64,000 bases of DNA from Minisyncoccota bacterium (GTDB taxonomy: Bacteria > Patescibacteriota > Minisyncoccia > UBA6257 > 02-FULL-45-10c). Both the position numbers and the translations under genes were made by a program. How positions within the stretch are numbered: position 1 is the stretch's first letter; each line of letters begins with the position of its first letter. Under the pieces are notes generated by a model. The model ran no database searches. It was not told the origin of the DNA and saw nothing but the letters and a program-made list of their open reading frames with translations. The stretch is taken from NCBI GenBank assembly GCA_028716745.1, contig JAQUPE010000002.1, positions 29,819 to 93,818 on the forward strand, written 5' to 3'. Of the stretch, positions 3,266 through 44,287 are shown in pieces.

Positions 3266-3269
3266 TTAT

Positions 3270-6226: not shown

Positions 6227-6243
6227 AAATAAAATTAACTGCT

Positions 6244-8884: not shown

Positions 8885-8942
8885 GTATGTATTCTACTTA
8901 AAAATAAGCGTATTTTCAACCTTTTATTTCCAGCCATTATAG

Positions 8943-10061
8943 ATGTATAATTTGAAAATGTTAGCTATCTACAGAAAATATCGCCCGAAAACTTTAGGAG
9001 AATTATTGGGGCAAGAACACGTCGTAGAAATACTTAAAAACGGCGCTGCGCAGGGAAAATTCGCCCATGCTTATCTTTTTTACGGCCCGAAAGGTTCGGG
9101 AAAAACTACCGCCGCCCGCTTGCTGGCAAAGCTCGCTAATTGCGAAACCAGGCAAAACGACAAAACTTTCCGCGAAAAAGGAGAGCCCTGCAATAAATGT
9201 TCCGCCTGTTCCCAGATTGATACCGGCCAAGCCCTGGATGTCGTAGAAATAGATGCCGCTTCCAACCGCGGCATAGACGAAATCCGCAATCTCAAAGAAG
9301 GGATCAAGCTATCCCCTTCTTTTCTCCATTACAAAATTTTTATAATCGACGAAATTCACATGCTTACCCGCGACGCCTTCAACGCGCTTCTTAAAACTCT
9401 GGAAGAGCCTCCGGCGCATGCGATTTTAATTATGGCCACTACCGAATATGAAAAGATTCCGGCAACAATTTCTTCCCGCGCCCAGCGTTTCCATTTCCAA
9501 AAACTTTCTCTGATAAAAATACTTGAAAAGCTCAACCGCGTTATAAAAGAAGAAAAAATAAAAATATCTCCTGAAGCCCTGGAGTTAATCGCCTCCTTAG
9601 CTGAAGGCAGCTTGCGCGACGCCGAATCTCTTTTGGATCAAATAGCGTCATTAGACCAGGATATAAATATAAAAGATGTTGAAAATATTGCCGGAAAAAT
9701 CGGACATAAAAAAACTTCAGCAATGGCCGAATATCTTATTAAAAACAACTTGCCTGGCGCTTTGAATTATTTAAACGAAATAGACCGCGGCGGCTCCAAT
9801 CTGGTTGAACTGAATAAAGATTTGATCCATTATCTCCGCCGAGCTTTGACCCTGAAAATGAATCCTCAAATGGAAGAATTATATAAAAAAGAATTGATAA
9901 AAGACGAGCTAACCGCTTTAAAAAATCACTCTGTCCTCATCAACGATCAAAAAATAATTTCGATAATAAAATCTCTCATCCGCGCCTACGGCGAAATGCG
10001 CTATTCTCCGTTTCCAATCGCTCCTCTGGAAGTTGCAATCATAGAAAACCTCAAATCCTGA
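8943..10061 (+). CDS. dnaX: DNA polymerase III subunit gamma/tau, short form (domains I-III only; possible true start at 8958, MLAIYRKYRP)
   Basis: YRKYRPKT...GPKGSGKTT (Walker A)...CNKCSACSQI (zinc module)...IDEIHML (Walker B)...SRAQRF (sensor). Confidence 0.85.
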   Translation: MYNLKMLAIYRKYRPKTLGELLGQEHVVEILKNGAAQGKFAHAYLFYGPKGSGKTTAARLLAKLANCETRQNDKTFREKGEPCNKCSACSQIDTGQALDVVEIDAASNRGIDEIRNLKEGIKLSPSFLHYKIFIIDEIHMLTRDAFNALLKTLEEPPAHAILIMATTEYEKIPATISSRAQRFHFQKLSLIKILEKLNRVIKEEKIKISPEALELIASLAEGSLRDAESLLDQIASLDQDINIKDVENIAGKIGHKKTSAMAEYLIKNNLPGALNYLNEIDRGGSNLVELNKDLIHYLRRALTLKMNPQMEELYKKELIKDELTALKNHSVLINDQKIISIIKSLIRAYGEMRYSPFPIAPLEVAIIENLKS

Positions 10062-11549: not shown

Positions 11550-13361
11550 ATGAAAATTAGAAATGTTTCTATAATCGCCCACGTTGACCACGGCAAAACG
11601 ACTTTGGTTGACGCGCTTTTAAAACAGTCTGATACCGACTTGGGAAAGCTTGGCGACCAAAAAGAATTAATAATGGATTTCAACGATCTTGAAAAAGAGC
11701 GCGGAATTACCATATTTTCTAAAAACGCTTCGGTCCAATACGGCGACACGAAGATCAATATAATAGATACTCCAGGACACGCCGACTTCGGCGGCGAAGT
11801 GGAGCGCGTGTTAAACCTTGCCGACGGTTCCCTACTTTTAATCGACGCGCAGGAAGGCCCGATGCCTCAAACCAGATTTGTTTTGAAAAAAGCGCTTTCA
11901 ATGGGCCACAAAATAATCTTGGTTATGAATAAAATAGATAAGCCAAACGCCAGAATAAATTACGCTTTGGATAAAGTTATCGAGCTTTTTATAGAACTCG
12001 GAGCAACTAATGACCAATTGAACTTCCCGATAATTTACGCATCCGGAAGAGACGGCGTTGCCGGACTAACTCCGGAATTGGAAAAAATGACGGATATTAA
12101 GCCGATTTTTGACGACATTATAAAATATATTCCCGAGCCAAAAGCCAATGCCAGCGGTCCGCTGCAAATGATGATTGTTTCCATTTCTTACGACAATTAC
12201 ATGGGCAGAATCGGCATAGGCAGGATTTACAGCGGAAAAATAAAAAATGGCCAAGCCATTTCCCATATTTCCCGCGAGGGCAAAACTGTAAAATCAAAAA
12301 TAACTTCTTTAATGACCTTTTCCGGACTTACCAAAAAAGAAACTGCCGAGCTTGAAGCCGGAGACATAGCCGCCGTCAGCGGAATAGACAATATAAATAT
12401 CGGCGACACTATCGCGGAAGAAATAGATCCAATCGCTCTCCCGCCGATTAAAATCGAGGAGCCGACCGTCAAAATGATTTTCAGCGTAAACAACTCCCCC
12501 TTTGCCGGAAAAGAAGGAAAGTATTGCACTTCAAGAAATTTAAAAGAACGCTTGGAAAAAGAATTGGATAACGATGTAGCGCTCCGCGTTAATCCCGGAA
12601 AATCTCCGGATGAATTTATCGTCTGCGGACGCGGCGAGCTTCATCTTTCTATTTTAATTGAAACAATGCGCCGTGAAGGATATGAAATGCAGGTCTCCCG
12701 CCCCGAAGTTATTATGAAAGAAGAAAACGGAAAAATTACCGAACCGACCGAAGATGCCTGGCTTGAAGTACCAGAAAAATATTCCGGAATGGTTATTGAA
12801 AAAATGGGACTCAGAAAAGGCACGCTTAAAAATATGAGCGTGGAAAACGGCATCGCTATTTTCCATTTCTATATTCCAACCCGCGGACTTATCGGATTCA
12901 GAAATGAATTCATGATTGAAACCAAAGGAACAGGAACTATCAATTCCCTTTTCGCCGGCTATGCGCCGAAATTTGATAATATTCAAACCAACCCGCATGG
13001 ATCAATTATTGTCCATGAAGCCGGAGCCTCCACCGCCTACGCTCTTTTGAAAATTCAGGAACGCGGAGAAATGTTTATCGGTCCTGGCGTTAAAGTTTAT
13101 GAAGGACAAGTTGTGGGAGAAAATGCCAAAGCCGAAGATATAATTTCAAATGTCTGCAAAGCAAAACAGCTTACAAACTTCAGAGCTAAAACCGACGCCG
13201 TCACCGACGACTTGGTTCCGCCCCGCGAAATGTCTCTTGAGCAAGCTATTGAATATGTTGGCGACGATGAACTTGTTGAAATTACTCCTATCAGCATCCG
13301 ATTAAGAAAAAGAGTTTTAAGCGGTACCCTCAGAGGCTCTCAAAAACGCCAAAATTCCTAA
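11550..13361 (+). CDS. typA: translational GTPase TypA/BipA
   Basis: IRNVSIIAHVDHGKTTLVD...DTPGHADF...NKIDK; 603 aa. Confidence 0.9.
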   Translation: MKIRNVSIIAHVDHGKTTLVDALLKQSDTDLGKLGDQKELIMDFNDLEKERGITIFSKNASVQYGDTKINIIDTPGHADFGGEVERVLNLADGSLLLIDAQEGPMPQTRFVLKKALSMGHKIILVMNKIDKPNARINYALDKVIELFIELGATNDQLNFPIIYASGRDGVAGLTPELEKMTDIKPIFDDIIKYIPEPKANASGPLQMMIVSISYDNYMGRIGIGRIYSGKIKNGQAISHISREGKTVKSKITSLMTFSGLTKKETAELEAGDIAAVSGIDNINIGDTIAEEIDPIALPPIKIEEPTVKMIFSVNNSPFAGKEGKYCTSRNLKERLEKELDNDVALRVNPGKSPDEFIVCGRGELHLSILIETMRREGYEMQVSRPEVIMKEENGKITEPTEDAWLEVPEKYSGMVIEKMGLRKGTLKNMSVENGIAIFHFYIPTRGLIGFRNEFMIETKGTGTINSLFAGYAPKFDNIQTNPHGSIIVHEAGASTAYALLKIQERGEMFIGPGVKVYEGQVVGENAKAEDIISNVCKAKQLTNFRAKTDAVTDDLVPPREMSLEQAIEYVGDDELVEITPISIRLRKRVLSGTLRGSQKRQNS

Positions 13362-13402: not shown

Positions 13403-13479
13403 ATTGGGAGATCGTCCCTGGCCCCTGGCCGGGCTAGGCGGGCAGGCTCAACAAACAAAATAAAAATTGGGAGATCGTC
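13403..13479. repeat. 14-nt direct repeat (attgggagatcgtc at 13403-13416 and 13466-13479) flanking a 49-nt insertion at the 5' end of tRNA-Gln
   Basis: The second repeat copy forms the tRNA 5' acceptor/D-stem. The insert is GC-rich repeat copy B followed by caacaaacaaaataaaa. Confidence 0.6.
13415..13448. repeat. 33-nt GC-rich repeat, copy B (tccctggcccctggccgggctaggcgggcaggct)
   Basis: 17-nt exact identity to 2240-2256 plus flanking similarity. Intergenic location. Confidence 0.6.
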
Positions 13480-13538
13480 TAATGGTAGGACACCGCCCTT
13501 TGGAGGCGGGTATCGGGGTTCGAGTCCCTGTCTCCCAG
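13468..13538 (+). tRNA. tRNA-Gln (anticodon TTG); CCA not encoded
   Basis: Acceptor stem tgggaga/tctccca, D-arm gtct-aatggtag-gaca, anticodon stem ccgcc/ggcgg with loop CTTTGGA, T-arm cgggg-TTCGAGT-ccctg, discriminator G. Confidence 0.8.
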
Positions 13539-13578
13539 CATTTCGGCAAACTTAAAAATAAATAGAAATAATTTAAAG

Positions 13579-18826: not shown

Positions 18827-19588
18827 ATGGATTATTTTAAAACAGAAGAAGACTTCAAAAAATTGTGCGGTTATGATATCGACGGCAAGTGGTATCCGCG
18901 CGTTACGAAAATCGTGGAAATAAAATCCAAGCCGGCGCTTTATATGTTTTACGGCGGAATGCCCAGCTACTCCGCCGCCAAAGCCATGACTGCCAAGTCT
19001 GCCACCGAAGGAACATTAATACACGAAACAGTGGAAAAATTTATGATCGGCGAAAAACCGGAAATTGCCGCTGAAATAAAACCGGCCGTTGACGCCTTTC
19101 TTAATTTTTTTGAAATGAACAACATTCAAATAGACAAAGATTTTGTAGAAAAAAGAATTTGCCACCCAGAGCACAGATATGCCGGAACAATCGATACGCT
19201 GGCGCTCATTGACGGAAAATTCGGCGTGCTGGATATAAAAACTTCGCAGGCAATTTACCGGGATTATAATCTGCAGACCTCGGCATATATTGAAGCGCTT
19301 ACATCGGAATTTCCAAACCTGGAAACGCGCTGGATTTTGCGGATTGACCAAACCAGAGACTGCTTGCGCTGCGGCGCAACTCTCCGCCCGAAAGGAGGAA
19401 CCAATAAAATACGCAAAGGAAGGCTTCCTCTCTGCCACGACGGCCAGCACGAGTGGACGGATCTCACCGGAAAAATAGAATTGAAAGAATTTCCTTTTTG
19501 GAAACAAGATTTTCAGGCATTTTTAGGAGCTAAAAAATTATGGGAATGGGAAAACGAACTTTGGCTCCAAAAAATCGGCTATTTATAG
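18827..19588 (+). CDS. PD-(D/E)xK nuclease-superfamily protein with an inserted Cys3-His zinc-ribbon-like segment
   Basis: GTIDTLALIDGKFGVLDIKTS (D...D/E-x-K core) and CLRCG...CHDGQHEW. Confidence 0.5.
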   Translation: MDYFKTEEDFKKLCGYDIDGKWYPRVTKIVEIKSKPALYMFYGGMPSYSAAKAMTAKSATEGTLIHETVEKFMIGEKPEIAAEIKPAVDAFLNFFEMNNIQIDKDFVEKRICHPEHRYAGTIDTLALIDGKFGVLDIKTSQAIYRDYNLQTSAYIEALTSEFPNLETRWILRIDQTRDCLRCGATLRPKGGTNKIRKGRLPLCHDGQHEWTDLTGKIELKEFPFWKQDFQAFLGAKKLWEWENELWLQKIGYL

Positions 19589-19748: not shown

Positions 19749-22700
19749 ATGAAAGTCGGGCACGTCTCGCGTAAAAATTTTGCTCTGACATTTTTTATTG
19801 CTGTTTTTATTTTCGGCTTTTTAGGCCTCATCAATACATCTCTCGCCTGGACTAGCCCCACACAGACCCCTCCCAATGGGAATGGGGTTGTTTCCGCATC
19901 CAGCGGATTTCTTGGAGTCGGCGGAATAACTGCTCCCGCCCAATCTCTTCAAATAAAAGCTTCTGCCGACAACGGAGTTTATCCTCTCGACATTACTCTT
20001 CCCAATGGAAACAGAAGGGCAGCGTTTTATTTAGCCAACGGAAACGGTTCATTTTATCTTTACGATTCTGCTAACGCCACCAAAGTACTTTTAACATCTT
20101 ACATGAACGATCCGAGCTATTTTAATATTACAAACGGAAATTTCGGACTTGGAACAACTGTGCCGACAGAAAAATTTGACGTCAGAGGAACTTCATACTT
20201 CGGAGGAAATACTGATATCTACGGACACATAACTATTAATAACAGCGGCGGCGTAGTAAAAATACAACCCGGGACAGTCACTTCTCCGGGAATTCAAATT
20301 GCCGGCGATCCCAATACCGGAGTCTATAGCCCCGACGCGGACAGAATATCATTTGTCACTGCCGGAACAGAAAGAATATCTATTCTCGCAAATGGAAATG
20401 TCGGAATCGGAACAACCAACCCCACTCAGCCTTTCAGCGCAAAATCTGGAAGCACAGTGCTTAATTTTTCAGGCAGCGGAGAATTTTTAACTAACGCAGT
20501 ATTTTCACAATTGGGAGCAACCAGCTATCTTGGAAATACAATTACCAACTACAGCACCGTCGATGATTTAAAAATAGAACCGCGAACAAATACAAAAAAT
20601 CTTTTATTGGCAACCGGAACAGGAAATGTCGGAATTGGAACAACCGCGCCGATGGGAAAAATTGATTTGGGAACTACGGGAGATTTTATTTTTGGAACGA
20701 CAACAGAAAAAATAAATTTAAGCGGAAATTATTTAAGACTTAAGGCACGAGGAAGCTCTGTTGCTTCACAAGAAATAACTATAAGCAGGCACGATGATAC
20801 CTATGATTATTTAAAACTTGACACTGATTCAATTATTTTTACTTGGAGAAAAGCGGCCGATATTAATGGAAACACAAATATTTATGGCTACTACAATATG
20901 TCCGGCGGAACATATCTTAATATGGGAGGCAGCCCAATTTACGGCAACACCACAGCCTCCGGAAATCTTACTCTCCACTCAACATCGCATGCCACAAAAG
21001 GAATTGTCCGTATTAATCCTTCTGGAGGAAACGTCGGCGTAGGAACCACTGCCCCTTCAGCCGCATTTGCAGTAAGCGGATCTATCTATACCTCCGGCGG
21101 ATATGTATTTCCCGATGGAATATTATTTACAGGAACCGGAACTTTCGGACAATGGTCTAAAACCGGCGCAAACATTTATCTGACTAACAGCTCTGATAAT
21201 GTTGGAATATCAACTACTACTCCAAATCAAAAACTGCGGATTGATTCCGGAAATATTAAATTAAGCGGCGGTTCAGGATTTGCCTGGAAGGGAATATCCG
21301 GATCAGACTCTTTTTCTTCTATGACAAACGGGCTATTTAAATTGTATTACGGCAACGACAACGATGGCTCATTGGTTTTAAATACCAACGCTAGCTCTCT
21401 TACAGAAATTTATGCCACTGGCGCATCCACCGGCTTAACCCTTGGAGTTAATAGCGCGGAAAAAATAAGAATCTCCCCCGCCGGAAATGTCGGTATCGGT
21501 TCAACCGGACCGACAGCCGAACTTGATGCAAGCGGACGCGGAAGATTTTCTCAAGGAATACAAATTACAGGAAATACATCTTTCCCCGCCGACACAGGAT
21601 TAGTTTTAAGAAGCTACGCGGGCTACAAAGAAATTCAATCTTTTAATAGCTCTCCTATCGCTCTCAATCCTGTCGGCAATAATGTCGGAGTTGGAACAAC
21701 CACTCCATATAATACTTTTGCTGTTTCTTCTGCAGGATCCGATCAAACACTTTTTAGATCTACCGGAACTTCCTATGGAACAGTAAATATAGATGTCGGG
21801 GGAACAGGAATTCCTAATTTGCAATTCAGGCAAGCCGGAGTCGCAAAAGCCGCAATCGGAGTTGATGCTGCGGGAAAATTATTATTTGGAATACCAAATA
21901 CCTCCAGCGCAAAAATGCTCATCGATACAAACGGAAATGTTGGAATTGGAATAGCAACGCCAACCGCGCAGCTGCATATTCCATCAAAAATACCGACAGC
22001 AGCAACCGGAGTAGCAACAACTTCAGATAAGCCAATTTCTCTAACTGTCCAGGGAAGATATGCCTATGTAGGAACCGAGGATCTTTCTAATTTTCAAATT
22101 TTTGATATTTCAAACCCTACCGCGCCCTTACTTATGGGGTCCACCGGACTTGGAGCTTATGATGTAATACTCTCTCCCCGTGTTCAGGGAAGTTATGCTT
22201 ACGTATTAAACAATACTGACGCGCTTCTTTATGTCGTTAATGTTTCCAATCCAATAACCCCTGTAATTGTGGGAAGCGTAGCAACTGGAGCATCTCCTTA
22301 CGATCTTTATGTCTCAGGAAAATATGCATACGTAGCAAACTACACTCCAAAAACTCTTCAGATATTTGATATTTCTAATCCGCACTCGCCAATCAGCGTA
22401 GGCAGCGTCGCCACAACGGACAATCCTCAAACTGTTTATGTTCAAGGAAGATATGCATACGTTGCGGGCGCCGATCTTCAAATTTTTGATATTTCAAACC
22501 CTGCATCTCCCGTAAGCGTTGGAAGCTATGCAACAATGGGAAGCACTCAGACCGTAGTAGTTCAAGGAAGATATGCTTATATGGGCAGTTCCGGATCGCA
22601 AGTGCTTGAAGTTCTTGATGTTGCAAATCCCGCAGCCCCATCAAGCGTAACTTGGATTAGCACAGGAGTAAGCACAAGAGTTTATTCTGTTCAAGGAAAA

Positions 22701-24020
22701 TATTTATATGCCGCTAACGGAACTCAATCTACTTTTCAAATTTTTGATATTTCAAACCCTGCATCGCCGACAAGCATGGGAACTGTTTCCACGGAAACCA
22801 CTCCTCAGTATGTCTGCGTCCAAGGAAGATATGCATATATAGTAAATTTTAATTCAGACTCTCTCCAAGTTTTTGACCTCAGCGGATCATACATACAACA
22901 ATTAGAAGCAGGCGGAATAGAAACAGGAACTTTATCTGTTAGAACAAATGCAATTATCAATAATGATTTGGATGTAAGAGGAGGTTTGCAGATAGGAGGC
23001 GGACTGGCAGCATACGGAGCTTCTTCATTCTTCAGTACCAGCACTGACAATATTCTTTCTGTTGCAAGAAAAGGAGGAACTTATCCTACTGTATTTAAAG
23101 AAGGCACAGACGGAGCCTTTATTTTGAATAATAATAATGTTGATGTTTTAACATTAAAATCAGGCAATGTAGGAATAGGAACCACCGCCCCAAGCGCATC
23201 ATATGGAACACTGACCGTCGCCGGTACGGGAGTAACTATTTCAGACGATGGCAATGCCAAATTACAGCTTGGACGATACAGCGGGGCCGCTGACTATTCC
23301 TATATTAAAGCTTCCGCTGCATCGCAAGGATTTAAATTTTCAAATGCCTTGGACACTGCAGATTTGGTTATTATAAAAAATGCCGGTAATGTAGGCATCG
23401 GCGTTGATCCGGGAAGCTATAAACTTAATGTTAACGGACCGCTTAATGCCACAGCTCTATGGGAAAATAGCAGCAGCAAACCAACCGATAACTATGCACT
23501 AAGAGGAACATGGACTGATCTCGGCAGCTACCCTTCCGCCTGCAGCGGTTATAATATGGCAACCGGAATTGGAGATACCCTAACATGCGGATTCAACGCA
23601 TACCCTGTTTACGCAAGCGAAACAACTGCCAATCAACGCATTCAAACCGATACAAATACAAACGTTTATGTTTATCTGGATGAAGTAAGAGATCCTCAGG
23701 GCAGATGGAATTCCGATTATTATTATTCCTGCCCGGTAACCGGCTATTACCAAGTCTCCGCCGGATTTATGGCATCTGATGTAGAAGCCGGCAAATGGGC
23801 TGAAGCCATTATCGCTGTAAGCGGATCGGCAAGATGCGTTCAATCTAAATCTCAATATGGAGTAGGTGGATGGGAAGTTTGGCAAACTTCTTGTAAGGTT
23901 TATTGCACGTCAAGCCAATCCATTTCCTTAATGACTAAAAGCGCCGATCCAGATTACTATATTAGATATGAGCCTGGCATCGGCTATGCCTATATTTCAA
24001 TTTATCTTGCCGGATTATAA
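19749..24020 (+). CDS. giant secreted paralog 1 (1423 aa): signal peptide, GNVGIGTT-type fibre-like repeats, 7 LVIVD-type repeats, conserved connector, divergent Cys-containing C-terminal tip
   Basis: N-terminal hydrophobic segment ending SLA|WTSP. Repeated G-N-V-G-I-G-T-T-x-P units from about aa 30-760. Seven units of G[RK]YAY...LQIFDISNP.SP (LVIVD-like, PF08309-type) at ~22044-22975. Then YIQQLEAGGIETGTLS..., then C-terminal ...YPSACSGY..GIGDTLTCGF.... Confidence 0.8.
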   Translation: MKVGHVSRKNFALTFFIAVFIFGFLGLINTSLAWTSPTQTPPNGNGVVSASSGFLGVGGITAPAQSLQIKASADNGVYPLDITLPNGNRRAAFYLANGNGSFYLYDSANATKVLLTSYMNDPSYFNITNGNFGLGTTVPTEKFDVRGTSYFGGNTDIYGHITINNSGGVVKIQPGTVTSPGIQIAGDPNTGVYSPDADRISFVTAGTERISILANGNVGIGTTNPTQPFSAKSGSTVLNFSGSGEFLTNAVFSQLGATSYLGNTITNYSTVDDLKIEPRTNTKNLLLATGTGNVGIGTTAPMGKIDLGTTGDFIFGTTTEKINLSGNYLRLKARGSSVASQEITISRHDDTYDYLKLDTDSIIFTWRKAADINGNTNIYGYYNMSGGTYLNMGGSPIYGNTTASGNLTLHSTSHATKGIVRINPSGGNVGVGTTAPSAAFAVSGSIYTSGGYVFPDGILFTGTGTFGQWSKTGANIYLTNSSDNVGISTTTPNQKLRIDSGNIKLSGGSGFAWKGISGSDSFSSMTNGLFKLYYGNDNDGSLVLNTNASSLTEIYATGASTGLTLGVNSAEKIRISPAGNVGIGSTGPTAELDASGRGRFSQGIQITGNTSFPADTGLVLRSYAGYKEIQSFNSSPIALNPVGNNVGVGTTTPYNTFAVSSAGSDQTLFRSTGTSYGTVNIDVGGTGIPNLQFRQAGVAKAAIGVDAAGKLLFGIPNTSSAKMLIDTNGNVGIGIATPTAQLHIPSKIPTAATGVATTSDKPISLTVQGRYAYVGTEDLSNFQIFDISNPTAPLLMGSTGLGAYDVILSPRVQGSYAYVLNNTDALLYVVNVSNPITPVIVGSVATGASPYDLYVSGKYAYVANYTPKTLQIFDISNPHSPISVGSVATTDNPQTVYVQGRYAYVAGADLQIFDISNPASPVSVGSYATMGSTQTVVVQGRYAYMGSSGSQVLEVLDVANPAAPSSVTWISTGVSTRVYSVQGKYLYAANGTQSTFQIFDISNPASPTSMGTVSTETTPQYVCVQGRYAYIVNFNSDSLQVFDLSGSYIQQLEAGGIETGTLSVRTNAIINNDLDVRGGLQIGGGLAAYGASSFFSTSTDNILSVARKGGTYPTVFKEGTDGAFILNNNNVDVLTLKSGNVGIGTTAPSASYGTLTVAGTGVTISDDGNAKLQLGRYSGAADYSYIKASAASQGFKFSNALDTADLVIIKNAGNVGIGVDPGSYKLNVNGPLNATALWENSSSKPTDNYALRGTWTDLGSYPSACSGYNMATGIGDTLTCGFNAYPVYASETTANQRIQTDTNTNVYVYLDEVRDPQGRWNSDYYYSCPVTGYYQVSAGFMASDVEAGKWAEAIIAVSGSARCVQSKSQYGVGGWEVWQTSCKVYCTSSQSISLMTKSADPDYYIRYEPGIGYAYISIYLAGL

Positions 24021-24034
24021 ATAAAATATAATTT

Positions 24035-27000
24035 ATGGAAAAAATTAATCAAAAAATAAAATTTATAATCATCGGCGCCGTTTCTATTGCGGGAGCTTTT
24101 GCTTTTTCACAATCGGCTTTTGCCTGGTCAAATCCTGCCCAATCCCCTCCCGCCGAAATAGGATCTCTTAAATTTACCAGCGGCTTTCTCGGCATAGGCG
24201 GAATTGTAACTCCTTCTCAATCTCTCCAAATAAAATCTGCTTCTATTAATGGGGTCTATCCTCTTGATTTATTAAATAATTCTTCCGGCAGAAGGGCGGC
24301 GTTTTATATAGCTAACGAAAATGGCTCGATATATTTTTATGATTCCGCGGGAGCTGAAAAAATATTACTTACTTCTTACTGGGGCAATCCAAGCTACATT
24401 AATACCAGCGGAGGAAATTTTGGAATAGGAACAACAGATCCGCAATATAAATTGGATGTAAAAGGAAGCGTCCGCGCAACCAGCAACATCTGGGTATATG
24501 GCAGCATAATAATGAGCAAGAGCGACGGAGTTATTCAAATGAGGGCCGGGACTGCTGCTCTTCCGGGTATTGTAATCAGCGGTGATGAAAATACCGGAAT
24601 ATTTAGTTCTGGCGCCGATAAATTATCATTTTCCGCTGGCGGCACAGAAAGAATTACTATGCTGGACAATGGAAATGTAGGAATTGGAACAGCTACTCCG
24701 GATTCCGCATTTACTGCTATGGGCGGCACTTTTAAATTACAGGTAAAATCTGGGGAAATATTTACCAGCGGATTTTATGCCCAACCGGGAGGAACAACCT
24801 ATCTCGGCAATACTATATATAATTATGCGACCGATGCCGATTTAACGGTAAATCCCCGCACAACTTCAAAAAATCTTCTATTAGCAACCGGAACCGGAAA
24901 TGTCGGAATTGGAACAACCGCTCCATTAGGAAAACTAGATATTGGGTCAACCGGAACCTTGGCTTTTGGAGCAGCTACCGAAAAAATAGAAAGCATAGGG
25001 CACTCCAGCGGAAAATACATTACTATCACCGCCAGAGGAGGCGCCACTTCGGCAAGATCTATTTGGATGGGAAGAAGAGGAGATGACTATAACTATCTAT
25101 GGATGGATACCGACGCCACTAAATTCTCATTCCAAAAAGGAATGCAGATTGTCGGAGGAAGCAATATTTATGGAAATCTTGTTTTTGGCGGAAGCACATA
25201 TCTTCTCGGCATGGGAGGCAGTCCGATTTACGGAAATAATACATCTTCCGGCAACCTTATTCTTGATTCAACATCAAGCGGAACAAAAGGATTCGTTCTT
25301 ATTAATCCTTCAGGAGGAAATGTAGGCGTGGCCACCACTTCTCCAGGAGCCGTATTCGCGGTTAATGGAACTATTTATTCCAACACAGGATATAAATTCC
25401 CGGATGGAGCGCTTATAACTAATGGCGCAGGGTTAAATTCTTGGACAAGAGCGAATCCAAACACCTACCCAACTACCATCGGCAATAATATCGGCATAGG
25501 AACCTCTTCCCCTGACGAAAAATTGCATGTAGCAGGAAATATTAAATTATCCGGAACAGGAAAATTAATTTGGGGAATGAATTCCTGGATTAATTCTTCT
25601 GATGGATTATTTACTCTCAATGCTCCTTCCAATTCATTAAAACTAGACGTAAATCCAAGCGGCGTTTCTCAAATCCTTACTTCTGGCGCCTCCAGTCTTA
25701 CTCTTGGCGCTAGCAGCACAGAAAGAATTAGAATTTCCGCCGCTGGAAACGTTGGAATAAATTCAACAGACCCAGGCGTTGAATTTGATGTTACCGGACG
25801 AGGAAGATTTTCTCAGGGAATGCAAATTACCGGATGGCAAACATTCCCCTCAGGAACGGGACTTATCATGCGCGATGCCGGCACCTACAAAGAAATACAA
25901 TCTTTTAATTCCACTCCCCTTGCGCTAAATCCTGCAGGAAATAACGTCGGAATTGGAACCACCGATCCAATCGCCACATTTACCGCACAAGGAGCTGTCT
26001 CCGACATAGCCTTATTCAAATCTACCGGCTCATCTTATGGAACAGTAAATATAGATGTCGGAGGAACAGGAATTCCTAATTTGCAATTTAAACAGGCTGG
26101 AACAGCAAAAGCTGCAATCGGAGTTGATTCTCTAGGAAAATTAATATTCGGATTAGCCGATACTTCCGCCATAAAGATGACTATTGATACAAATGGAAAT
26201 GTCGGAATAGGAACAACTACTCCGTTGGCGCAATTATACGTAGCCGGAAGAACAACTCCTGTCCAAACTGGTTCCGTAGGATCAAGTTCGAATATTTATA
26301 ATACTTACATGGCCATTCAAGGAAATTATGCCTATCAAGTAGATGCTGAGGATTCTTCCGTTCTTCAAGTTATTGATATTTCCAACCCGGCCTCTCCAGA
26401 AATTATTTCGTCAACAAATCTTGGTGCTATATCTTTGGATATAGCCGTCCAAGGAAAATACGCATATATTACCGGCCCAGATTTGAAAGTTTTTGATATT
26501 TCCAATCCGAAAGCTCCGGTGAATATTTCTACGCTAGGCATAGTCGGAGATAAAATTTATGTCCAAGGAAAATATGCGTATGTGGCAACAAACGTAAATT
26601 ATGGCGCTCAAACTTTAAAAATTGTTGATATTTCAAATCCATTTGTTTTAACTACTGCCGGCTCCGTTGCAGCAACAAATATACCTACCGATATCTTTGT
26701 CCAAGGAAGATATGCCTACATAGCCGGCTATGACGCAAATTGCAAAATAGCTGATATTTCTAATCCGGCCTCGCCTGTAATAGTCAGTTCTTTTTCGACT
26801 ACCGATGCGGCAACTTCTATTTATGTCCAAGGAAGATATGCCTATATTTCTACAAGCCCGATGAACTCCGGCAATTTATTGGTGTATGACATTTCTAATC
26901 CCGCCGCTCCATCAAATATAGCAACACTAGGTCTGGGCAATGATGTTAAATCTATTTATGCCCAAGGAAGATATGTTTATGCAGGAGTAAGACTTTCTAA

Positions 27001-28291
27001 TAGTGTTCAGGTAATAGATGTTTCCAATCCTGCCACTCCCGTACTCTTCGGATCCGTTGGCGTAACTGCTCCATGGACTGTTTCAGTAAGAGGAAGATAT
27101 GCATATGTAGGAAATGGAAATAGCTTAACGGTCATCGACCTCGGCGGAGCCTACATACAGCAATTGGAAGCAGGCGGAATAGAAACAGGAACTTTGTCTA
27201 TAAGGACAAATGCTTCAATCAATAATGATTTGGATATAAGAGGAGGCTTGCAGATAGGAGGCGGACTGGCGGCATACGGAGCTTCTTCATTCTTCAGCAC
27301 CAGCACTGACAGCGTCCTTACTGTTGCGAGAAAAGGAGCGACATATCCTACTATATTCAAGCAAGGTACGGATGGAGCTTTTGTCTTAAATAATAATAAT
27401 GCCGATGTTATGACGTTAAAATCCAGCAAGATTGGTATTGGAACTACCACTCCTAGCTTGTCTTATGGAACTCTTACTGTTGGAGGTACAGGACTGACTA
27501 TTTCTGACGATGGCAATGCTAAATTGCAGATTGGAAGATATAGCGCGGCTGGAGGCAACGACTATTCATATATAAAGCCGTCAACTGTATCTCAAGGAAT
27601 AAGATTTTCAAACTCTGCCGATACGGATTGGGTTACTATTAAAAACAACGGCAACGTCGGAATCGGAACAACTGATCCGGGCATCTATAAACTCAGCGTA
27701 AGCGGATCGCTTGATTCTACGGGAATATATGAAAACGGGACTACTTTGAATAATACTTATGTAAATAAAAGCACATGGACAACGCACGACAATTATCCTT
27801 CCGCTTGCGGATCTGGATTCGCATCTGGGATTGGAGACTCGCTGACTTGCGGATTTAATACATACACCACTTACGCCACAAAATCAGGCGCCGAACAAAG
27901 AATTCAATCTTATGGCTATGCCGATATTACTATTGATAGACAGGCAGACACGGACCCTAATGGATTATGGACCTCCAATTATTATTACGATTGCCCCGTA
28001 GATGGCTATTATCAAGTAGAAGGCGGATTTATGGCCTCGGACATACAAGCATATTCTCCGACTTCAATCGCCGTTGCGGTAAACGGAACTATTAAGTGCT
28101 TTAATAAAAAACCTCAGCTATCAGGGGCAGGATATTGGGAGTCTTGGAATGTTTCCTGCATTGTTTATTGCACAACAAGCACGCATCAATATATAACCCT
28201 GCAAGCCCAAAGCGACGATGGAGATTTTAAAATCCAGAATGCCGTCGGTGCCGCATATACTTTCATTTCAGTTAACCTTGTAAGCAAATAA
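24035..28291 (+). CDS. giant secreted paralog 2 (1418 aa), same architecture
   Basis: Signal peptide ...SAFA|WSNP. Same repeat architecture, with 7 LVIVD-like units at ~26335-27150. The gap to paralog 1 is 14 nt. Confidence 0.8.
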   Translation: MEKINQKIKFIIIGAVSIAGAFAFSQSAFAWSNPAQSPPAEIGSLKFTSGFLGIGGIVTPSQSLQIKSASINGVYPLDLLNNSSGRRAAFYIANENGSIYFYDSAGAEKILLTSYWGNPSYINTSGGNFGIGTTDPQYKLDVKGSVRATSNIWVYGSIIMSKSDGVIQMRAGTAALPGIVISGDENTGIFSSGADKLSFSAGGTERITMLDNGNVGIGTATPDSAFTAMGGTFKLQVKSGEIFTSGFYAQPGGTTYLGNTIYNYATDADLTVNPRTTSKNLLLATGTGNVGIGTTAPLGKLDIGSTGTLAFGAATEKIESIGHSSGKYITITARGGATSARSIWMGRRGDDYNYLWMDTDATKFSFQKGMQIVGGSNIYGNLVFGGSTYLLGMGGSPIYGNNTSSGNLILDSTSSGTKGFVLINPSGGNVGVATTSPGAVFAVNGTIYSNTGYKFPDGALITNGAGLNSWTRANPNTYPTTIGNNIGIGTSSPDEKLHVAGNIKLSGTGKLIWGMNSWINSSDGLFTLNAPSNSLKLDVNPSGVSQILTSGASSLTLGASSTERIRISAAGNVGINSTDPGVEFDVTGRGRFSQGMQITGWQTFPSGTGLIMRDAGTYKEIQSFNSTPLALNPAGNNVGIGTTDPIATFTAQGAVSDIALFKSTGSSYGTVNIDVGGTGIPNLQFKQAGTAKAAIGVDSLGKLIFGLADTSAIKMTIDTNGNVGIGTTTPLAQLYVAGRTTPVQTGSVGSSSNIYNTYMAIQGNYAYQVDAEDSSVLQVIDISNPASPEIISSTNLGAISLDIAVQGKYAYITGPDLKVFDISNPKAPVNISTLGIVGDKIYVQGKYAYVATNVNYGAQTLKIVDISNPFVLTTAGSVAATNIPTDIFVQGRYAYIAGYDANCKIADISNPASPVIVSSFSTTDAATSIYVQGRYAYISTSPMNSGNLLVYDISNPAAPSNIATLGLGNDVKSIYAQGRYVYAGVRLSNSVQVIDVSNPATPVLFGSVGVTAPWTVSVRGRYAYVGNGNSLTVIDLGGAYIQQLEAGGIETGTLSIRTNASINNDLDIRGGLQIGGGLAAYGASSFFSTSTDSVLTVARKGATYPTIFKQGTDGAFVLNNNNADVMTLKSSKIGIGTTTPSLSYGTLTVGGTGLTISDDGNAKLQIGRYSAAGGNDYSYIKPSTVSQGIRFSNSADTDWVTIKNNGNVGIGTTDPGIYKLSVSGSLDSTGIYENGTTLNNTYVNKSTWTTHDNYPSACGSGFASGIGDSLTCGFNTYTTYATKSGAEQRIQSYGYADITIDRQADTDPNGLWTSNYYYDCPVDGYYQVEGGFMASDIQAYSPTSIAVAVNGTIKCFNKKPQLSGAGYWESWNVSCIVYCTTSTHQYITLQAQSDDGDFKIQNAVGAAYTFISVNLVSK
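27136..27559 (+). repeat. 424-nt tract about 98% identical to 31451..31874 (paralog 2 vs paralog 3 connector region)
   Basis: Direct comparison shows a handful of mismatches over about 424 nt. The identical shadow ORFs 27151..27450 and 31466..31765 in the track reflect the same tract. Confidence 0.85.
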
Positions 28292-28307: not shown

Positions 28308-31300
28308 ATGAACAATAAATTTAAAAATAAAAATATGATTAAGTCTATAATTCTATTTTTGGGAATAATTATTTCTTCAACGGCCTTTGCATGGACTAAT
28401 CCCTCGGCCAATCCGACTCAAGTTACCGGAGCAATTTCAATCAGCGGCGGAAATCTTGGAGTGGGCGGCGTAACTTCCCCATCCCAATCTCTTCAAATAA
28501 AATCTTCCGCCGACAACGGAACTTATCCTTTGGACATTACCGATTCTTCCGGCAACAGAAGAGCCGCTATTTACATGGCTAACGGAAATCCCGAATTAAA
28601 TCTTTTTGATTCCGGCGGCACTCTTCGGGTAAAAATTTCTCCTTATGCCAATAACCCTAGCTATATAAACGTAAGCGGAGGAAATTTAGGAATAGGAACA
28701 ACCGCACCGGAATATAAACTACACATAGCCGGGACCGCTTATTTCGCCGGCGATACTACTGTATATGGAAACTTAGCCATAGATACCTCTGGAGGACAAA
28801 TAAAAATGAGAACCGGCACAGTCAGCGCTCCTGGCCTTCAAATTAATGGCGATCCAAATACCGGAGTCTATAGCGCCGCCGCCGATACTTTAAATGTATC
28901 AACCGCAGGCGCAAATCATATTACCGTGTTACCGTCTGGAAACGTAGGTTTTGGTTCCGGAGCTACCGCCCCAGACGGATCGTTCTATGTTAGAAATGCC
29001 GCAGGCGGCGTATTTAAATTCATGACCAGCGGAGAATTATATGTAGGCGGAACCATAGCCCAGCAAGGCGCCGAGAGCTACATGGGAAGCACTATAGTAA
29101 ATTACAGCTCCAATACTGACCTCACAGTTCAGCCTCGTACCACCTCTAAAAATTTAATACTGGCGACTGGAACTGGAAACGTAGGAATCGGAACTACTTC
29201 TCCTAAAGGAAAACTTGATGTGGGAGCAACAGGAAATATTATTTTTGGAAATGCAACAGAAAAAATAGATCTCAATGGAAATTATGTGAGATTATCCGGC
29301 AGAGGACTTGCCACTTCCGCCAGATCTATTTGGTTTGGCAGATTAAGCGATGCCAGCGACAGCCTGGCCATAGATACCGATGCTGTTATATTTGAATGGA
29401 GAAAAGGTATTGAAATGGTTGGCGATGTAACCCTCAATGGCCAGTTTTCTTTCAGCGGCAGCGGCTACTATCTTATGCTTCAAGGAAAAACAATTTACGG
29501 CGCAACTACAACCTCCGGAAATCTTACTCTTAATTCAACGTCTAATGCTACAAAAGGATTTGTCTTTCTTAATCCTTCTGGAGGAAGCGTGGGCGTAGCC
29601 ACCACTTCTCCAGGAGCCACATTCGCAGTTAACGGAGCTATTTATACAAATACCGGATTTAGATTCCCCGACGGAAGCATGCTGACAAATGGCGCCGGCT
29701 TAGGAGCGTGGTCTAAGTCAGGAAATTATTTATATCTGACCACCAGCTCCGACAATGTAGGCATCGGCACCTCTAGTCCGACAGAAAAACTTTATGTTGA
29801 TTCTGGAAATATCGGAGTAGATGAAGGATATAGCATGCTTTGGGGAGGAGCGGCTATATCAACACTTAATTATAATAATGGTTTGTATAAATTATATTAT
29901 AACGGCGATAACGATGGGTCCTTAGGAATTAATTTGGGAAGCAATATAATAAATATTTATTCTACTGGAAACTCATCTAATTTAACTTTTGGAGCAAACG
30001 ATTATAGCAGAAGAATAGTGATTACTCCTGCCGGAAATATCGGTATCAGTTCGACAGACCCAGGAACAGAATTAGACGTAACGGGAAGAGCCAGATTTTC
30101 TCAGGGAATACAGATAACCGGAGTAACCACATTCCCCGCCGGAACAGGAATTATTTTAAGAGACCAAACAAATTATAAAGAAATCCAATCATTTGATGTC
30201 TCTCCCCTCGCCTTAAACCCCGCCGGCAATAATGTCGGTATAGGAACAACCGCCCCAACTGCCCTATTTATGGTTTCTTCCTCAGGAACCGATCAAGCAG
30301 TCTTTAGATCTACCGATACTTCTTATGGAACCATGGGCGTTGATGTTGGAGGCACCGGCATTCCTAATGTCCAATTTAAACAAGCCGGAACTTCTAAGGC
30401 AGCGATTGGAGTTAATAACGCCGGACAATTAATATTTGGAATAACAAACACCACTGGCCCGAAAATGATTATTGGTTCAAACGGAAATGTTGGTGTTGGA
30501 TCAACAACGCCTATGGCCCAATTGCATGTAGCAGGAAATATACCAAGCGCAGCAGCAGGATCAACTTCTACGGGCAGTACGCCTGGCTCAGTCTTTATCC
30601 AAGGAAGATATGCCTATGTATTAAATTCAGTCGACAGAACCTTGCAGATTTTTGATGTTTCTAATCCTTCCGCTCCAATAAGCAAAGGAACAGCTACTAC
30701 AATAGGAGCATCTCAAGATCGTCCTCAAAATTTATATGTCCAAGGGAAATACGCATACTTAGCAGTTGATCATAATTATGGAAGCGAGCCGGGAACCATT
30801 CAGATTTTTGATGTTTCTAATCCTACTGCGCCAACAAATATAAGCATGGTAACAGCCGGCGATATTCCGGTTTCCGTATACGTCCAAGATAAATATGCAT
30901 ATGTTGTAAATTATGGAACAACAGATACGTTTAAAATTTTCGATATTTCCAATCCTTTCCAACCCACTCAAATAGGAACTATAAATACAACCTATTATGA
31001 TCCTACTTCTGTGTTTGTTCAGGGAAGATATGCTTACATTGTTTATGAAAACTCTTCCAGGCTTGAGATATTCGATATTTCTAATCCCGCAACGCCCATT
31101 AGTACAGGCTCTGTGAATACCGGCGCAAACGGCGCAACGGCAGTCTATGTTCAAGGAAGATATGCGTATATAGCAATGGATGGAAATTTTAAAATCGTTG
31201 ATATTTCCAATCCTGCCGCGCCCGCCAATAAAGGATCATTAAGCATCGTAGGATTTGAAATTGTTGTTCAAGGAAAATATGCATATCTGGCAGATGCAAG

Positions 31301-32555
31301 ATCTAATGTTATTAGAGTTATAGATGTTTCCAATGTTGACTCGCCCGTATTGATAGGATCTATGGGCACAGGAGGCTGGCCAGGATCTTTGGCCGTCCAA
31401 GGAAGATATGCGTATGTAGTAAATGGCACGTCTAATACTCTTCAAGTCTTCGACCTCGGCGGAGCCTACATACAGCAATTGGAAGCAGGCGGAATAGAAA
31501 CAGGAACTTTGTCTATAAGGACAAATGCTTCAATCAATAATGATTTGGATATAAGAGGAGGCTTGCAGATAGGAGGCGGACTGGCAGCATATGGAGCTTC
31601 TTCATTCTTCAGCACCAGTACTGACAGCGTCTTTACTGTTGGGAGAAAAGGAGCGACATATCCTACTGTATTCAAACAAGGTACGGATGGAGCTTTTGTC
31701 TTAAATAATAATAATGCCGATGTTATGACGTTAAAATCCAGCAAGATTGGTATTGGAACTACCACTCCTAGCTTGTCTTATGGAACTCTTACTGTTGGAG
31801 GCACAGGACTGACTATTTCTGACGATGGCAATGCTAAATTGCAGATTGGAAGATATAGCGCGGCCAACGATTATTCTTATTTCAAACTTACCCCGGGATC
31901 ATTTGGATTTAAATTTTCAAGTGCCAACGATTCTTCCGACTTGGTTATTATAGATTCTAATGGAGTAGATCTTGGAACGTCTGATGCTGATAGCCATAAA
32001 CTTGATGTTAATGGAACGCTTAACGCCACAAGCCTTTATGAAAATGGAACGGCTCTCTCCGCTTCTTATGTAGCAAGAAATAATTGGGCAACCCACGACA
32101 GCTATCCATCCGCTTGCGCCGCCGGCACTTTCTTAACCGGAATTGGAGATACCCTAACATGCGGATTCAGCAAAACTCCTTTCTTCTCCGCTAAAACAAG
32201 CTCTCAAGCAGTTTCTCCAAGCCAAACCACATGGACAACCGTTACTGTTCCCGCGGGCAACTATTCATGCAATACCGGATACTACAATGTTTCAGTCAGC
32301 TGGACAGCAGGTTTTGAGAGCGACATAACACAAGGAAGCTGGGCAGAAGCTGCCGTTGGAGTAGACGGATCTCCTAGATGCGTCAATTCTAAACCGTATT
32401 TTTCCTCAAAAGGTAATGAAACTTGGGCAATTTCATGCATGGTTTATTGTTCTGGAGCGCAAACGATTTCTATGATGATGAGGAGCAACGATACCGGCTT
32501 TACCATTCAATCTGGCGCCGGATCTTATCTCTCTGTAGTCTTTGTAAGCTATTAA
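28308..32555 (+). CDS. giant secreted paralog 3 (1415 aa), same architecture
   Basis: Signal peptide ...TAFA|WTNP. 7 LVIVD-like units at ~30603-31470. The gap to paralog 2 is 16 nt. A terminator follows. Confidence 0.8.
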   Translation: MNNKFKNKNMIKSIILFLGIIISSTAFAWTNPSANPTQVTGAISISGGNLGVGGVTSPSQSLQIKSSADNGTYPLDITDSSGNRRAAIYMANGNPELNLFDSGGTLRVKISPYANNPSYINVSGGNLGIGTTAPEYKLHIAGTAYFAGDTTVYGNLAIDTSGGQIKMRTGTVSAPGLQINGDPNTGVYSAAADTLNVSTAGANHITVLPSGNVGFGSGATAPDGSFYVRNAAGGVFKFMTSGELYVGGTIAQQGAESYMGSTIVNYSSNTDLTVQPRTTSKNLILATGTGNVGIGTTSPKGKLDVGATGNIIFGNATEKIDLNGNYVRLSGRGLATSARSIWFGRLSDASDSLAIDTDAVIFEWRKGIEMVGDVTLNGQFSFSGSGYYLMLQGKTIYGATTTSGNLTLNSTSNATKGFVFLNPSGGSVGVATTSPGATFAVNGAIYTNTGFRFPDGSMLTNGAGLGAWSKSGNYLYLTTSSDNVGIGTSSPTEKLYVDSGNIGVDEGYSMLWGGAAISTLNYNNGLYKLYYNGDNDGSLGINLGSNIINIYSTGNSSNLTFGANDYSRRIVITPAGNIGISSTDPGTELDVTGRARFSQGIQITGVTTFPAGTGIILRDQTNYKEIQSFDVSPLALNPAGNNVGIGTTAPTALFMVSSSGTDQAVFRSTDTSYGTMGVDVGGTGIPNVQFKQAGTSKAAIGVNNAGQLIFGITNTTGPKMIIGSNGNVGVGSTTPMAQLHVAGNIPSAAAGSTSTGSTPGSVFIQGRYAYVLNSVDRTLQIFDVSNPSAPISKGTATTIGASQDRPQNLYVQGKYAYLAVDHNYGSEPGTIQIFDVSNPTAPTNISMVTAGDIPVSVYVQDKYAYVVNYGTTDTFKIFDISNPFQPTQIGTINTTYYDPTSVFVQGRYAYIVYENSSRLEIFDISNPATPISTGSVNTGANGATAVYVQGRYAYIAMDGNFKIVDISNPAAPANKGSLSIVGFEIVVQGKYAYLADARSNVIRVIDVSNVDSPVLIGSMGTGGWPGSLAVQGRYAYVVNGTSNTLQVFDLGGAYIQQLEAGGIETGTLSIRTNASINNDLDIRGGLQIGGGLAAYGASSFFSTSTDSVFTVGRKGATYPTVFKQGTDGAFVLNNNNADVMTLKSSKIGIGTTTPSLSYGTLTVGGTGLTISDDGNAKLQIGRYSAANDYSYFKLTPGSFGFKFSSANDSSDLVIIDSNGVDLGTSDADSHKLDVNGTLNATSLYENGTALSASYVARNNWATHDSYPSACAAGTFLTGIGDTLTCGFSKTPFFSAKTSSQAVSPSQTTWTTVTVPAGNYSCNTGYYNVSVSWTAGFESDITQGSWAEAAVGVDGSPRCVNSKPYFSSKGNETWAISCMVYCSGAQTISMMMRSNDTGFTIQSGAGSYLSVVFVSY
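31451..31874 (+). repeat. partner copy of the 27136..27559 near-identical tract
   Basis: See the 27136..27559 entry. Confidence 0.85.
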
Positions 32556-32574
32556 TACCTAAACTAATAAAAAA

Positions 32575-32600
32575 CACCGCTTATCGCGGTGTTTTTTTGC
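32575..32600 (+). terminator. intrinsic terminator after the giant-gene triplet
   Basis: caccgc-ttat-cgcggtg hairpin followed by ttttttt. Confidence 0.65.
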
Positions 32601-43243: not shown

Positions 43244-44287
43244 TTATTCTCTTATATCTTTCGGCTTTGGAGATACATTGAACAAATGAGAATATTTATC
43301 GAAATTCTCGGAAATCACTCCGAGTCCCCTGGCAACGCAGGATAACGGATCGTCCACTACCACGGTAGCAACGGCCAATTCTTTCTCCATCAATTTATCC
43401 AAGCCCTTCAGCAAACTTCCGCCTCCGCATAAAAATATACCTCTTCTCAAAATATCGCCCACCAATTCCGGCGGAGCCGATTCAATAACCTCCTTTATCG
43501 CCTCAACAACAAGCTTCAAAGACTTGGCCGTAGCCGCCCTTACGTGGCTGTCCTTTATTACAATCTCCTTCGGCAAACCGGTTGCCATATCGCGTCCGCG
43601 AATAGGCAAATCAAGCTTCTGATCAACCAAAAGGGCAGAACCGGCAACAATTTTTAATTCCTCGGCAGTCGGTTCTCCGATAGTCAAACGAAATTCGTCT
43701 CTGATAAATTTTATTATATCGTCGTTTAATTTATCGCCCGCAATTTTAATGCTTTTAGAAGTAACTATTCCTCCCATTGAGATAATGGCTATTTCCGTAG
43801 TTCCTCCCCCCATATCGATAATCATGTTTGAGGTCGGTTCATTTACCGGCAATCTGGCGCCAATAGCCGCAGCCATCGGCTCCTCTACTATGTAAGCGCC
43901 TGTCGCTCCTGCGCCAATAATCGCGTCTTCAACGGACTTTCTCTCCACCTCCGTCAAATTACTGGGCACTCCGACAACTGCCCTCTTAAAACTTAAAAGT
44001 TTGTTTCCGCTGATTTTTTTAAGAAAATAACGGAGTATTTCCTGAGTCATTTCAAAATCGGAAATTACGCCGTTGGTAAGCGGTCTTATAACCGAAATAT
44101 GAGCGGGAGTTCTGCCAATCATTTTTCTTGCCTCCTCGCCAATCGCTAAAACTTGTCCGCTTTTATTATTTATCGCCACGACGGACGGTTCATTTATAAC
44201 TATCCCTCTGTCAGCAACATAAACCAGCGAATTCGCTGTTCCTAAATCTACGCCTATATTTTTTGAAAAATAATTCCACAACGCCAT
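43244..44287 (-). CDS. mreB: actin-like rod-shape protein MreB
   Basis: IGVDLGTANSLVYV...DMGGGTTE...; 347 aa. Confidence 0.9.
   Translation of the reverse strand: MALWNYFSKNIGVDLGTANSLVYVADRGIVINEPSVVAINNKSGQVLAIGEEARKMIGRTPAHISVIRPLTNGVISDFEMTQEILRYFLKKISGNKLLSFKRAVVGVPSNLTEVERKSVEDAIIGAGATGAYIVEEPMAAAIGARLPVNEPTSNMIIDMGGGTTEIAIISMGGIVTSKSIKIAGDKLNDDIIKFIRDEFRLTIGEPTAEELKIVAGSALLVDQKLDLPIRGRDMATGLPKEIVIKDSHVRAATAKSLKLVVEAIKEVIESAPPELVGDILRRGIFLCGGGSLLKGLDKLMEKELAVATVVVDDPLSCVARGLGVISENFDKYSHLFNVSPKPKDIRE

Follow-up and report, generated by a model that had tools for sequence, protein, structure and literature searches.

Recent gene conversion as the probable origin of a near-identical connector tract in tandem LVIVD-propeller genes of a Patescibacteria genome

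A tandem array of three secreted fibre-like proteins

We analysed a 64,000-nucleotide (nt) stretch of contig JAQUPE010000002.1 from a Minisyncoccota bacterium (hereafter the window; all positions count from its first letter), which carries three large, co-oriented paralogous genes in tandem: g1 (19749-24020, + strand), g2 (24035-28291, +) and g3 (28308-32555, +). Their open reading frames (ORFs) encode 1423, 1418 and 1415 amino acids (aa), respectively, and g2 and g3 share the architecture of g1 (Pfam LVIVD, E=8e-44). Our subject is a 415-nt tract inside g2 and g3 that is nearly identical in both genes, and which we interpret as the footprint of gene conversion. The g2 product is identical to NCBI protein PHN74_01190, from a metagenome-assembled genome (MAG) listed as 'Candidatus Pacebacteria bacterium', and the proteins that flank it on one 124,704-bp contig, PHN74_01185 and PHN74_01195, match g1 and g3. 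Only 14 and 16 nt separate the genes, and no terminator was seen between them, while a strong, bidirectional terminator-like hairpin with a 12-bp stem (32569-32597) lies directly 3' of g3. Because of these short gaps and the hairpin just past g3, the three genes probably form a single operon.

All three proteins follow the same domain order, which runs from a signal peptide through a stalk, a seven-bladed LVIVD propeller and a connector to a Cys-containing C-terminal head. The signal peptide is of the Sec type (ending in ...AFA and followed by W), and the stalk that succeeds it spans about 750 aa with repeated GIGTTxP motifs. The propeller is supported by PF08309 matches far above the gathering cut-off (E=7e-40 to 8e-44; 134-147 bits vs 20.2), and a motif map (QG[RK]YAY) resolves seven blades per protein. 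The N-terminal stalk, and no other part of the protein, matches phage tail-fibre PHROGs, and PF13884 (Peptidase_S74) is absent from all three even at E<=10. In codon-aware alignments of the whole genes, every pair shows 62-63% nucleotide and 54-56% amino acid identity. The best explanation for the array is a set of large secreted fibre-like proteins that arose by ancient triplication and are cotranscribed in an uncultured, ultra-small member of the Patescibacteria (Paceibacteria-type).

A near-identical tract in the connector of g2 and g3

The tract occupies 27135-27549 (+; codons 1034-1172) in g2 and 31450-31864 (+) in g3, as the maximal high-identity segment at a fixed offset of 4315 nt, and its two copies are 98.1% identical, with 8 mismatches in 415 nt. 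The initial annotation had placed a tract of 424 nt and about 98% identity at 27136-27559 and 31451-31874; the identity agrees with ours, while the length was overstated by running about ten diverged bases too far in the 3' direction. The mismatches fall at g2 positions 27271, 27277, 27304, 27317, 27327, 27353, 27361 and 27487, with the spectrum G/A, C/T, C/T, C/T, C/G, A/G, G/A and T/C. When identity between g2 and g3 is followed in 90-nt windows, it reaches 0.94-1.00 within the tract and drops to 0.40-0.72 nearly everywhere else, with sharp edges on both sides. The profile is therefore neither uniformly high nor uniformly low, and the LVIVD and tip regions on either side are as clearly diverged as had been proposed.

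Breakpoint analysis gave the same picture. A GENECONV-like permutation test (2097 polymorphic sites, 2000 site permutations) returned a fragment score of 61.5 against a null maximum of 12.2 (P<0.0005), with fragment boundaries at 27136-27559 and 31451-31868. Three-way informative sites are star-like along the genes, the patterns g1=g2, g1=g3 and g2=g3 being about equally frequent; only in 27134-27550 do g2=g3 sites prevail, by about 10:1 over the other patterns. The homologous connector of g1 (22873-23287, +) is 82% identical to each of the other two copies (82.3% to the tract when taken as 22875-23287), so that the lower identity claimed earlier for this copy stands, though at a figure slightly below the rough 85% given for it. 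The longest exact runs of all three gene pairs lie within the tract, and comprise 136 and 125 nt between g2 and g3, and 29, 26 and 23 nt between g1 and either of the others.

The near-identity extends to silent positions. By the Nei-Gojobori method, g2 and g3 have a synonymous divergence (dS) of 0.051 within the tract, from 5 differences at 101 synonymous sites, and of 1.4-2.0 in the flanks; their nonsynonymous divergence (dN) is 0.013 vs 0.41-0.50. The binomial probability of observing five or fewer synonymous differences is 1e-38 at the flank rate and 1e-21 at the rate seen against g1, which differs from g2 and g3 within the tract by a dS of 0.75-0.78 and a dN of 0.09. To control for both conservation and codon bias, we also considered only those codons at which two copies encode the same amino acid. 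The fraction of these with the same codon in g2 and g3 is 0.96 in the tract vs 0.51 in the flanks (Fisher p=7e-27), where it lies at 0.51-0.56 for every pair. Since synonymous sites are near-identical as well, constraint at the protein level fails as the cause of the identity. Window identity, informative sites, dS and dN, codon usage and permutation thus all bear out the earlier proposal of recent conversion or recombination between the second and third paralogs.

The tract encodes the junction and stalk that connect the last LVIVD blade to the head, with the translation DLGGAYIQQLEAGGIETGTLS...KIGIGTTTPSLSYGTLTV...GRYSAA. It starts at the exact end of the last blade, where ...V[IF]D gives way to LGGAYIQQLEAGGIETGTLS..., and continues through one GIGTTxP stalk unit to ...GRYSAA; its 3' edge adjoins a 2-codon indel. 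No other module of the family is as constrained as this connector, whose dN is 0.09 even against g1, compared with 0.41-0.50 elsewhere. Moreover, a post-propeller junction motif, D[LV]GG[AS]YIQQLEAGG, follows LVIVD propellers at 40-70% amino acid identity in many other assemblies, including Saccharibacteria, Nealsonbacteria, Kaiserbacteria, Peribacteria and some Babeliales, Verrucomicrobia and Chlamydiae MAGs, and is frequently iterated two to seven times in a single giant gene. We also observed the core GG[AS]YIQQLEAGG outside the Patescibacteria at loci of Babeliales (L007, L009), Verrucomicrobia (L008, L020, L034, L042), Chlamydiae (L036) and Gammaproteobacteria MAGs (L019, L052), many of them from symbiont or parasite lineages.

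An antisense ORF of 99 aa lies within the tract (27151-27450, - strand), with a twin at 31466-31765. As the initial annotation had anticipated, these identical 'shadow' ORFs are a by-product of the tract: in g1 the frame is broken into different ORFs, and we rejected it as a real gene since it is not preserved there.

The head that follows the connector (27767-28288, + in g2) is the variable 'tip', diverged from its equivalents in g1 and g3, and the C-terminal region has no sequence-level match in PDB or Pfam. An AlphaFold 2 model covering connector and head assigned moderate confidence to the last ~110 aa of the g2 head (predicted local distance difference test, pLDDT, 70-79), whereas the connector reached only a pLDDT of about 30, so that the model is uninformative on the structure of the converted module. 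Foldseek matched the modelled head to EDA-A1, C1QL2, Caprin-2 C1q, the BC2L-C lectin N-domain and a phage spike knob at TM scores of 0.6-0.69, with only 12-17% identity to the top matches EDA-A1, C1QL2 and Caprin-2 C1q. The head is probably a C1q/TNF-like jelly-roll binding domain, which we offer as a lead at the level of the predicted fold with no claim of family membership. A HMMER search with g2 residues 1030-1418 among 1.84 billion representatives recovered 1510 relatives, all aligning to the first ~250-300 residues, i.e. the connector and stalk; the last ~90-140 aa of the head aligned in none of the 1510, nor in any protein of the search outside the three paralogs. The head therefore lacks sequence relatives beyond g1-g3 in that search, whereas the relatives themselves commonly end in Peptidase_S74.

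The tract itself is layered. Its first sub-segment (27135-27270, +; 136 nt) is 100% identical between g2 and g3 and 88% identical to g1. The second (27271-27361, +; 91 nt) holds seven of the eight mismatches, at 92.3% identity, and the third (27362-27549, +; 188 nt) contains a single g2/g3 mismatch while its synonymous identity to g1 is at background, giving g2/g3 divergences of 0%, 7.7% and 0.5%. Such clustering of seven of eight mismatches in 91 nt is unexpected by simulation (P=0.003), and the middle sub-segment may be an older layer than its neighbours or may record the patchy repair of a heteroduplex. The same-codon fraction of g1 against g2 and g3 also declines along the tract, from 0.82-0.85 in the first 136 nt to 0.77-0.80 in the next 91 nt and 0.53-0.55 in the last 188 nt. 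This excess synonymous identity of g1 in the 5' half of the tract, which goes beyond the initial annotation, is significant for the first sub-segment against flank values of 0.53-0.56 (p about 1e-4 to 9e-4). It suggests that the 5' ~225 nt of the g1 connector were homogenised with g2 and g3 in an earlier event. Given this codon excess and the clustering of the g2/g3 mismatches, we infer that the connector has been homogenised repeatedly, and not once.

Three further short patches, each individually significant after global permutation, link different pairs of paralogs on the + strand. The first is a candidate micro-conversion patch between g2 and g1 (26044-26083 = 21782-21821), with one mismatch at 15 polymorphic sites in 40 nt (global P=0.001); the second is a candidate patch between g2 and g3 (25043-25066 = 29310-29333; global P=0.0005). 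The third is a perfect 35-nt identity between g3 and g1 (32135-32169 = 23561-23595; P=0.016), which encodes TGIGDTLTCGF in the otherwise diverged head. Small exchanges have thus recurred in the array, most of all in the connector.

Gene conversion and its alternatives

We consider it very probable that the tract was left by a recent interlocus (ectopic) gene conversion in which g2 and g3 were the partners. Because both flanks of both copies are saturated in divergence, the exchange is best described as a two-sided, non-crossover replacement. We hypothesize that purifying selection on the junction and stalk module would have retained enough DNA identity, in runs of 23-29 nt, for pairing; the longest exact runs of the non-converted pairs fit such constraint-preserved identity. 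Homologous pairing of the RecA type, between misaligned copies on sister chromosomes or within one chromosome, followed by non-crossover repair, would then have copied the sequence of one paralog into the other. On either side, the heteroduplex may have stopped extending at the point where similarity is lost, which on the left is the end of the last LVIVD blade and on the right the 2-codon indel. The outcome would be concerted evolution of the connector, with the propeller and the C1q/TNF-like head left free to diverge.

Several points weigh against this reading. The main residual doubt is that the locus is known from a single assembly, derived from a MAG, in which partial consensus collapse of a repeat is possible. 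Neither the protein database, nor GTDB genomes, nor JGI metagenomes yielded an orthologous array or outgroup from which donor, recipient and non-reciprocity could be told. Neither recA nor any other recombination gene was seen in the window, which is itself part of the 124.7-kb contig. Lastly, the codon excess of g1 in the first sub-segment could in principle reflect an unrecognised constraint at the nucleotide level.

Of the competing explanations, an assembly artefact survives best, though we regard it as quite unlikely. Under this scenario, two moderately similar connector copies were collapsed or polished to a shared consensus that was then placed in both genes. The source is indeed a MAG contig, the exact repeats of 136 and 125 nt are near typical maximum k-mer sizes, and no independent assembly of the locus turned up among public assemblies or in genome and metagenome scans. 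Yet the eight copy-specific differences that were kept imply that the copies were resolved separately, and each copy is in frame within an intact ORF of 1415-1418 aa with unique flanks. Even the least identical sub-segment, at 92%, stands far above the level of the flanks, such that conversion would be inferred anyway. A comparable tract between adjacent paralogs on a Saccharibacteria record, described below, argues in the same direction.

Selection without recombination, in which the two copies would be held identical by purifying selection at the protein level or by a functional element in the DNA or RNA (an RNA structure, an antisense gene or an internal signal), is very improbable. It can draw on the strong constraint of the connector (a dN of 0.09 against g1), a junction motif kept across phyla, the partial excess of synonymous identity of g1 in the first sub-segment and the presence of the 99-aa antisense ORF in both copies. 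Protein constraint cannot, however, erase synonymous differences, of which 5 were observed vs about 66 expected, and g1, which is equally constrained as a protein, still differs at a dS of 0.75-0.78; this contrast largely refutes the explanation. In g1 the antisense ORF is broken up in another way, and an RNA element was rejected given that the tract is predicted to fold no better than shuffled sequences (z=-0.02) and yields no Rfam match at or above a family's gathering score.

An equally slight chance attaches to the tract being the leftover of a recent duplication or unequal crossover that made one of the genes. Unequal crossover is possible in a tandem array of same-sized genes but would leave near-identity running into one flank or both. 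Divergence is instead saturated on both sides, the two boundaries are sharp and, beyond the tract, no two of the three genes are closer to each other than to the third, which excludes a simple event of this type.

Programmed variation is the least credible of all, whether it worked through the template and variable repeats of a diversity-generating retroelement (DGR) or through an expression site supplied by donor cassettes as in pilE/pilS. Although these are surface proteins with a variable head in a presumably host-dependent organism, and DGRs are common in the candidate phyla radiation (CPR), the identical part is the conserved module and not the variable one, the mismatches show no adenine specificity, all three genes are full-length and probably share one operon, the window holds no silent cassette and no other full or partial copy of the tract, and no reverse transcriptase or recombinase occurs among the Pfam-scanned ORFs at about 2.3-55.5 kb of the window. 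A DGR target was rejected on the mismatch spectrum and the lack of a reverse transcriptase among those neighbouring ORFs. In this single genome, the suggested 'cassette-like diversification' of the flanks is not in evidence; what we see is homogenisation of a conserved module.

The surroundings of the array are those of an ordinary core chromosome, with genes for BipA, SecA, TIM, PGK, ScpA/B, MreB/C and PBP2 as well as RNase P RNA and tRNA-Gln, and no mobile-element genes were found among the same scanned ORFs. Directly upstream of g1, at a distance of 160 nt, we identified a 253-aa ORF (18827-19588, +) that matches phage exonuclease PHROGs (phrog_298, E=3e-22) and, weakly, Cas4/PD-(D/E)XK families (Pfam PDDEXK_1, E=0.09; NCBIfam cas4, E=0.016). 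The location of a recombination-type nuclease next to a conversion-bearing array may be coincidence, and this ORF shares no homology with the one that precedes a homologue discussed below (P0004). Further afield, two full-length MreB paralogs (43244-44287, -, and 47360-48415, -) lie within 4 kb of each other beside MreC and PBP2 in what is a small CPR genome, a bacterial class A RNase P RNA is found at 1438-1793 (+; 102.2 bits vs a gathering threshold of 100), and tRNA-Gln(TTG) is encoded at 13468-13539 (+).

Related loci, known systems and implications

No orthologous array came to light in the collections searched. A full-length-alignment scan of genome contigs found no relatives, an exact 29-mer from the tract had 0 matches in metagenome contigs, and degenerate scans recovered distant relatives only, the best cases sharing 30-71% amino acid identity along the initial ~40-210 connector residues. 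The nearest homologues examined (P0005, P0013 and P0004) are single genes by context and not arrays, and most LVIVD relatives are single giant genes that combine two to seven propeller-junction units with a C-terminal Peptidase_S74 domain. At locus L001, the strand opposite to that of homologue P0005 carries, about 1.2 kb upstream of it, a small gene (8405-8815, -) that matches 23S_rRNA_IVP and, faintly, bAvd, a family that includes DGR accessory proteins; no reverse transcriptase was seen in the fetched stretch of that locus.

Among these relatives, a second case of localised near-identity was found in the Saccharibacteria record OY970151.1 ('chromosome: 1'; loci L030 and L028, about 212.4-230.5 kb), where adjacent giant LVIVD paralogs of 3447 and 2253 aa share a 783-nt tract at 97.8% identity that begins upstream of the genes and takes in the initial ~650 nt of their coding sequence. 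Outside this tract, the two genes are at most 68% identical in nucleotides and 41-51% in amino acids. This tract is an independent analogue of that in g2 and g3, in this case including the putative promoter. Direct repeats of at least 200 nt and at least 94% identity were also detected in 8 of 123 fetched related loci, and in all four of those whose ORFs were checked (L016, L048, L053 and L060) the repeats lie in a single giant gene. In L016, for example, 8663-9159 and 11777-12273 are 99.8% identical over 497 nt; other near-identical direct repeats (98-100%, 0.5-1.1 kb) occur in L048 (807-1282 / 3081-3557), L060 (992-1659 / 3287-3954) and L040 (3275-4404 / 5264-6393). The remaining repeat units are less than 80% identical. 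Such repeats suggest intragenic conversion or very recent duplication of a module.

The present array resembles these 'tail fiber domain-containing' LVIVD giants in its LVIVD blades, its D[LV]GG[AS]YIQQLEAGG junction and its GIGTTxP stalk repeats, and several of the giants likewise carry near-identical internal repeats. It departs from them in consisting of three separate one-unit genes, in its orphan TNF/C1q-like head and in the lack of PF13884.

The classical examples of interlocus gene conversion in bacteria are tufA/tufB in Salmonella and the rRNA operons, in which the process is RecA-dependent and non-reciprocal. As in these systems, paralogous DNA within one chromosome has been homogenised in g2 and g3, visible as a loss of synonymous divergence. 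Whereas whole genes are kept identical in the tuf and rRNA cases, the effect here is limited to a 415-nt module within otherwise saturated paralogs. The g2/g3 tract is in this sense a case of a known mechanism, ordinary domain-limited interlocus gene conversion, and calls for no new one.

The closest described analogue of the g1-g3 array is the lpl tandem cluster of Staphylococcus aureus, in which every ORF contains a conserved nucleotide block between 5' and 3' variable regions that has been proposed as the site of recombination among paralogs (Tsuru & Kobayashi 2008, PMC2568036). Comparison of many strains showed that crossovers in lpl shuffle the variable regions and change copy number (PMC2568036). 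Both systems consist of tandem paralogs for surface proteins with a role, presumed in our case, in host interaction, and in both a block conserved in all paralogs lies between variable regions. They differ in that our evidence comes from one genome and concerns a two-sided, non-crossover conversion that homogenises the block, and in that the proteins are unrelated. Conversion confined to one region of tandem paralogs has also been described in eukaryotes, for TLR1/TLR6 (PMC2077338) and in a model for HMA4 (bioRxiv 10.1101/2025.10.29.685298). In both, as in the present array, conversion limits divergence in one region while other domains diverge, but those systems are eukaryotic, with meiotic or mitotic exchange, and are accompanied by population data.

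Why a connector should be kept alike while its neighbours diverge invites some speculation. One unlikely possibility is that g1, g2 and g3 supply the three chains of a single heterotrimeric surface fibre, in which conversion and selection would keep the connector and stalk in register, following the logic of the tandem C1qA/C/B genes. If so, the diverging propellers and C1q/TNF-like heads of the three chains would form a composite binding surface. The single-copy homologues in other genomes argue for homotrimers as the default, and thus against this arrangement. A milder variant is that the connector might act as a standing recombination hotspot that lets a host-dependent bacterium reassort its propeller and head modules.

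Gene conversion of this type has practical consequences for the study of these proteins. Phylogenies or domain trees built from the connector module will mislead, and short exact repeats such as those in the tract can break or confuse MAG assemblies. More generally, the g2/g3 tract illustrates domain-limited concerted evolution cleanly, and without statistical ambiguity, in a genome of the CPR/Patescibacteria, a group in which recombination between paralogs and the evolution of large surface proteins, with their presumed role in host attachment, are little documented. It indicates that homologous recombination acts at a sub-gene scale in streamlined genomes, and that the junction and stalk module behind the LVIVD propeller is at once a structurally constrained part of the protein and a substrate for recombination.

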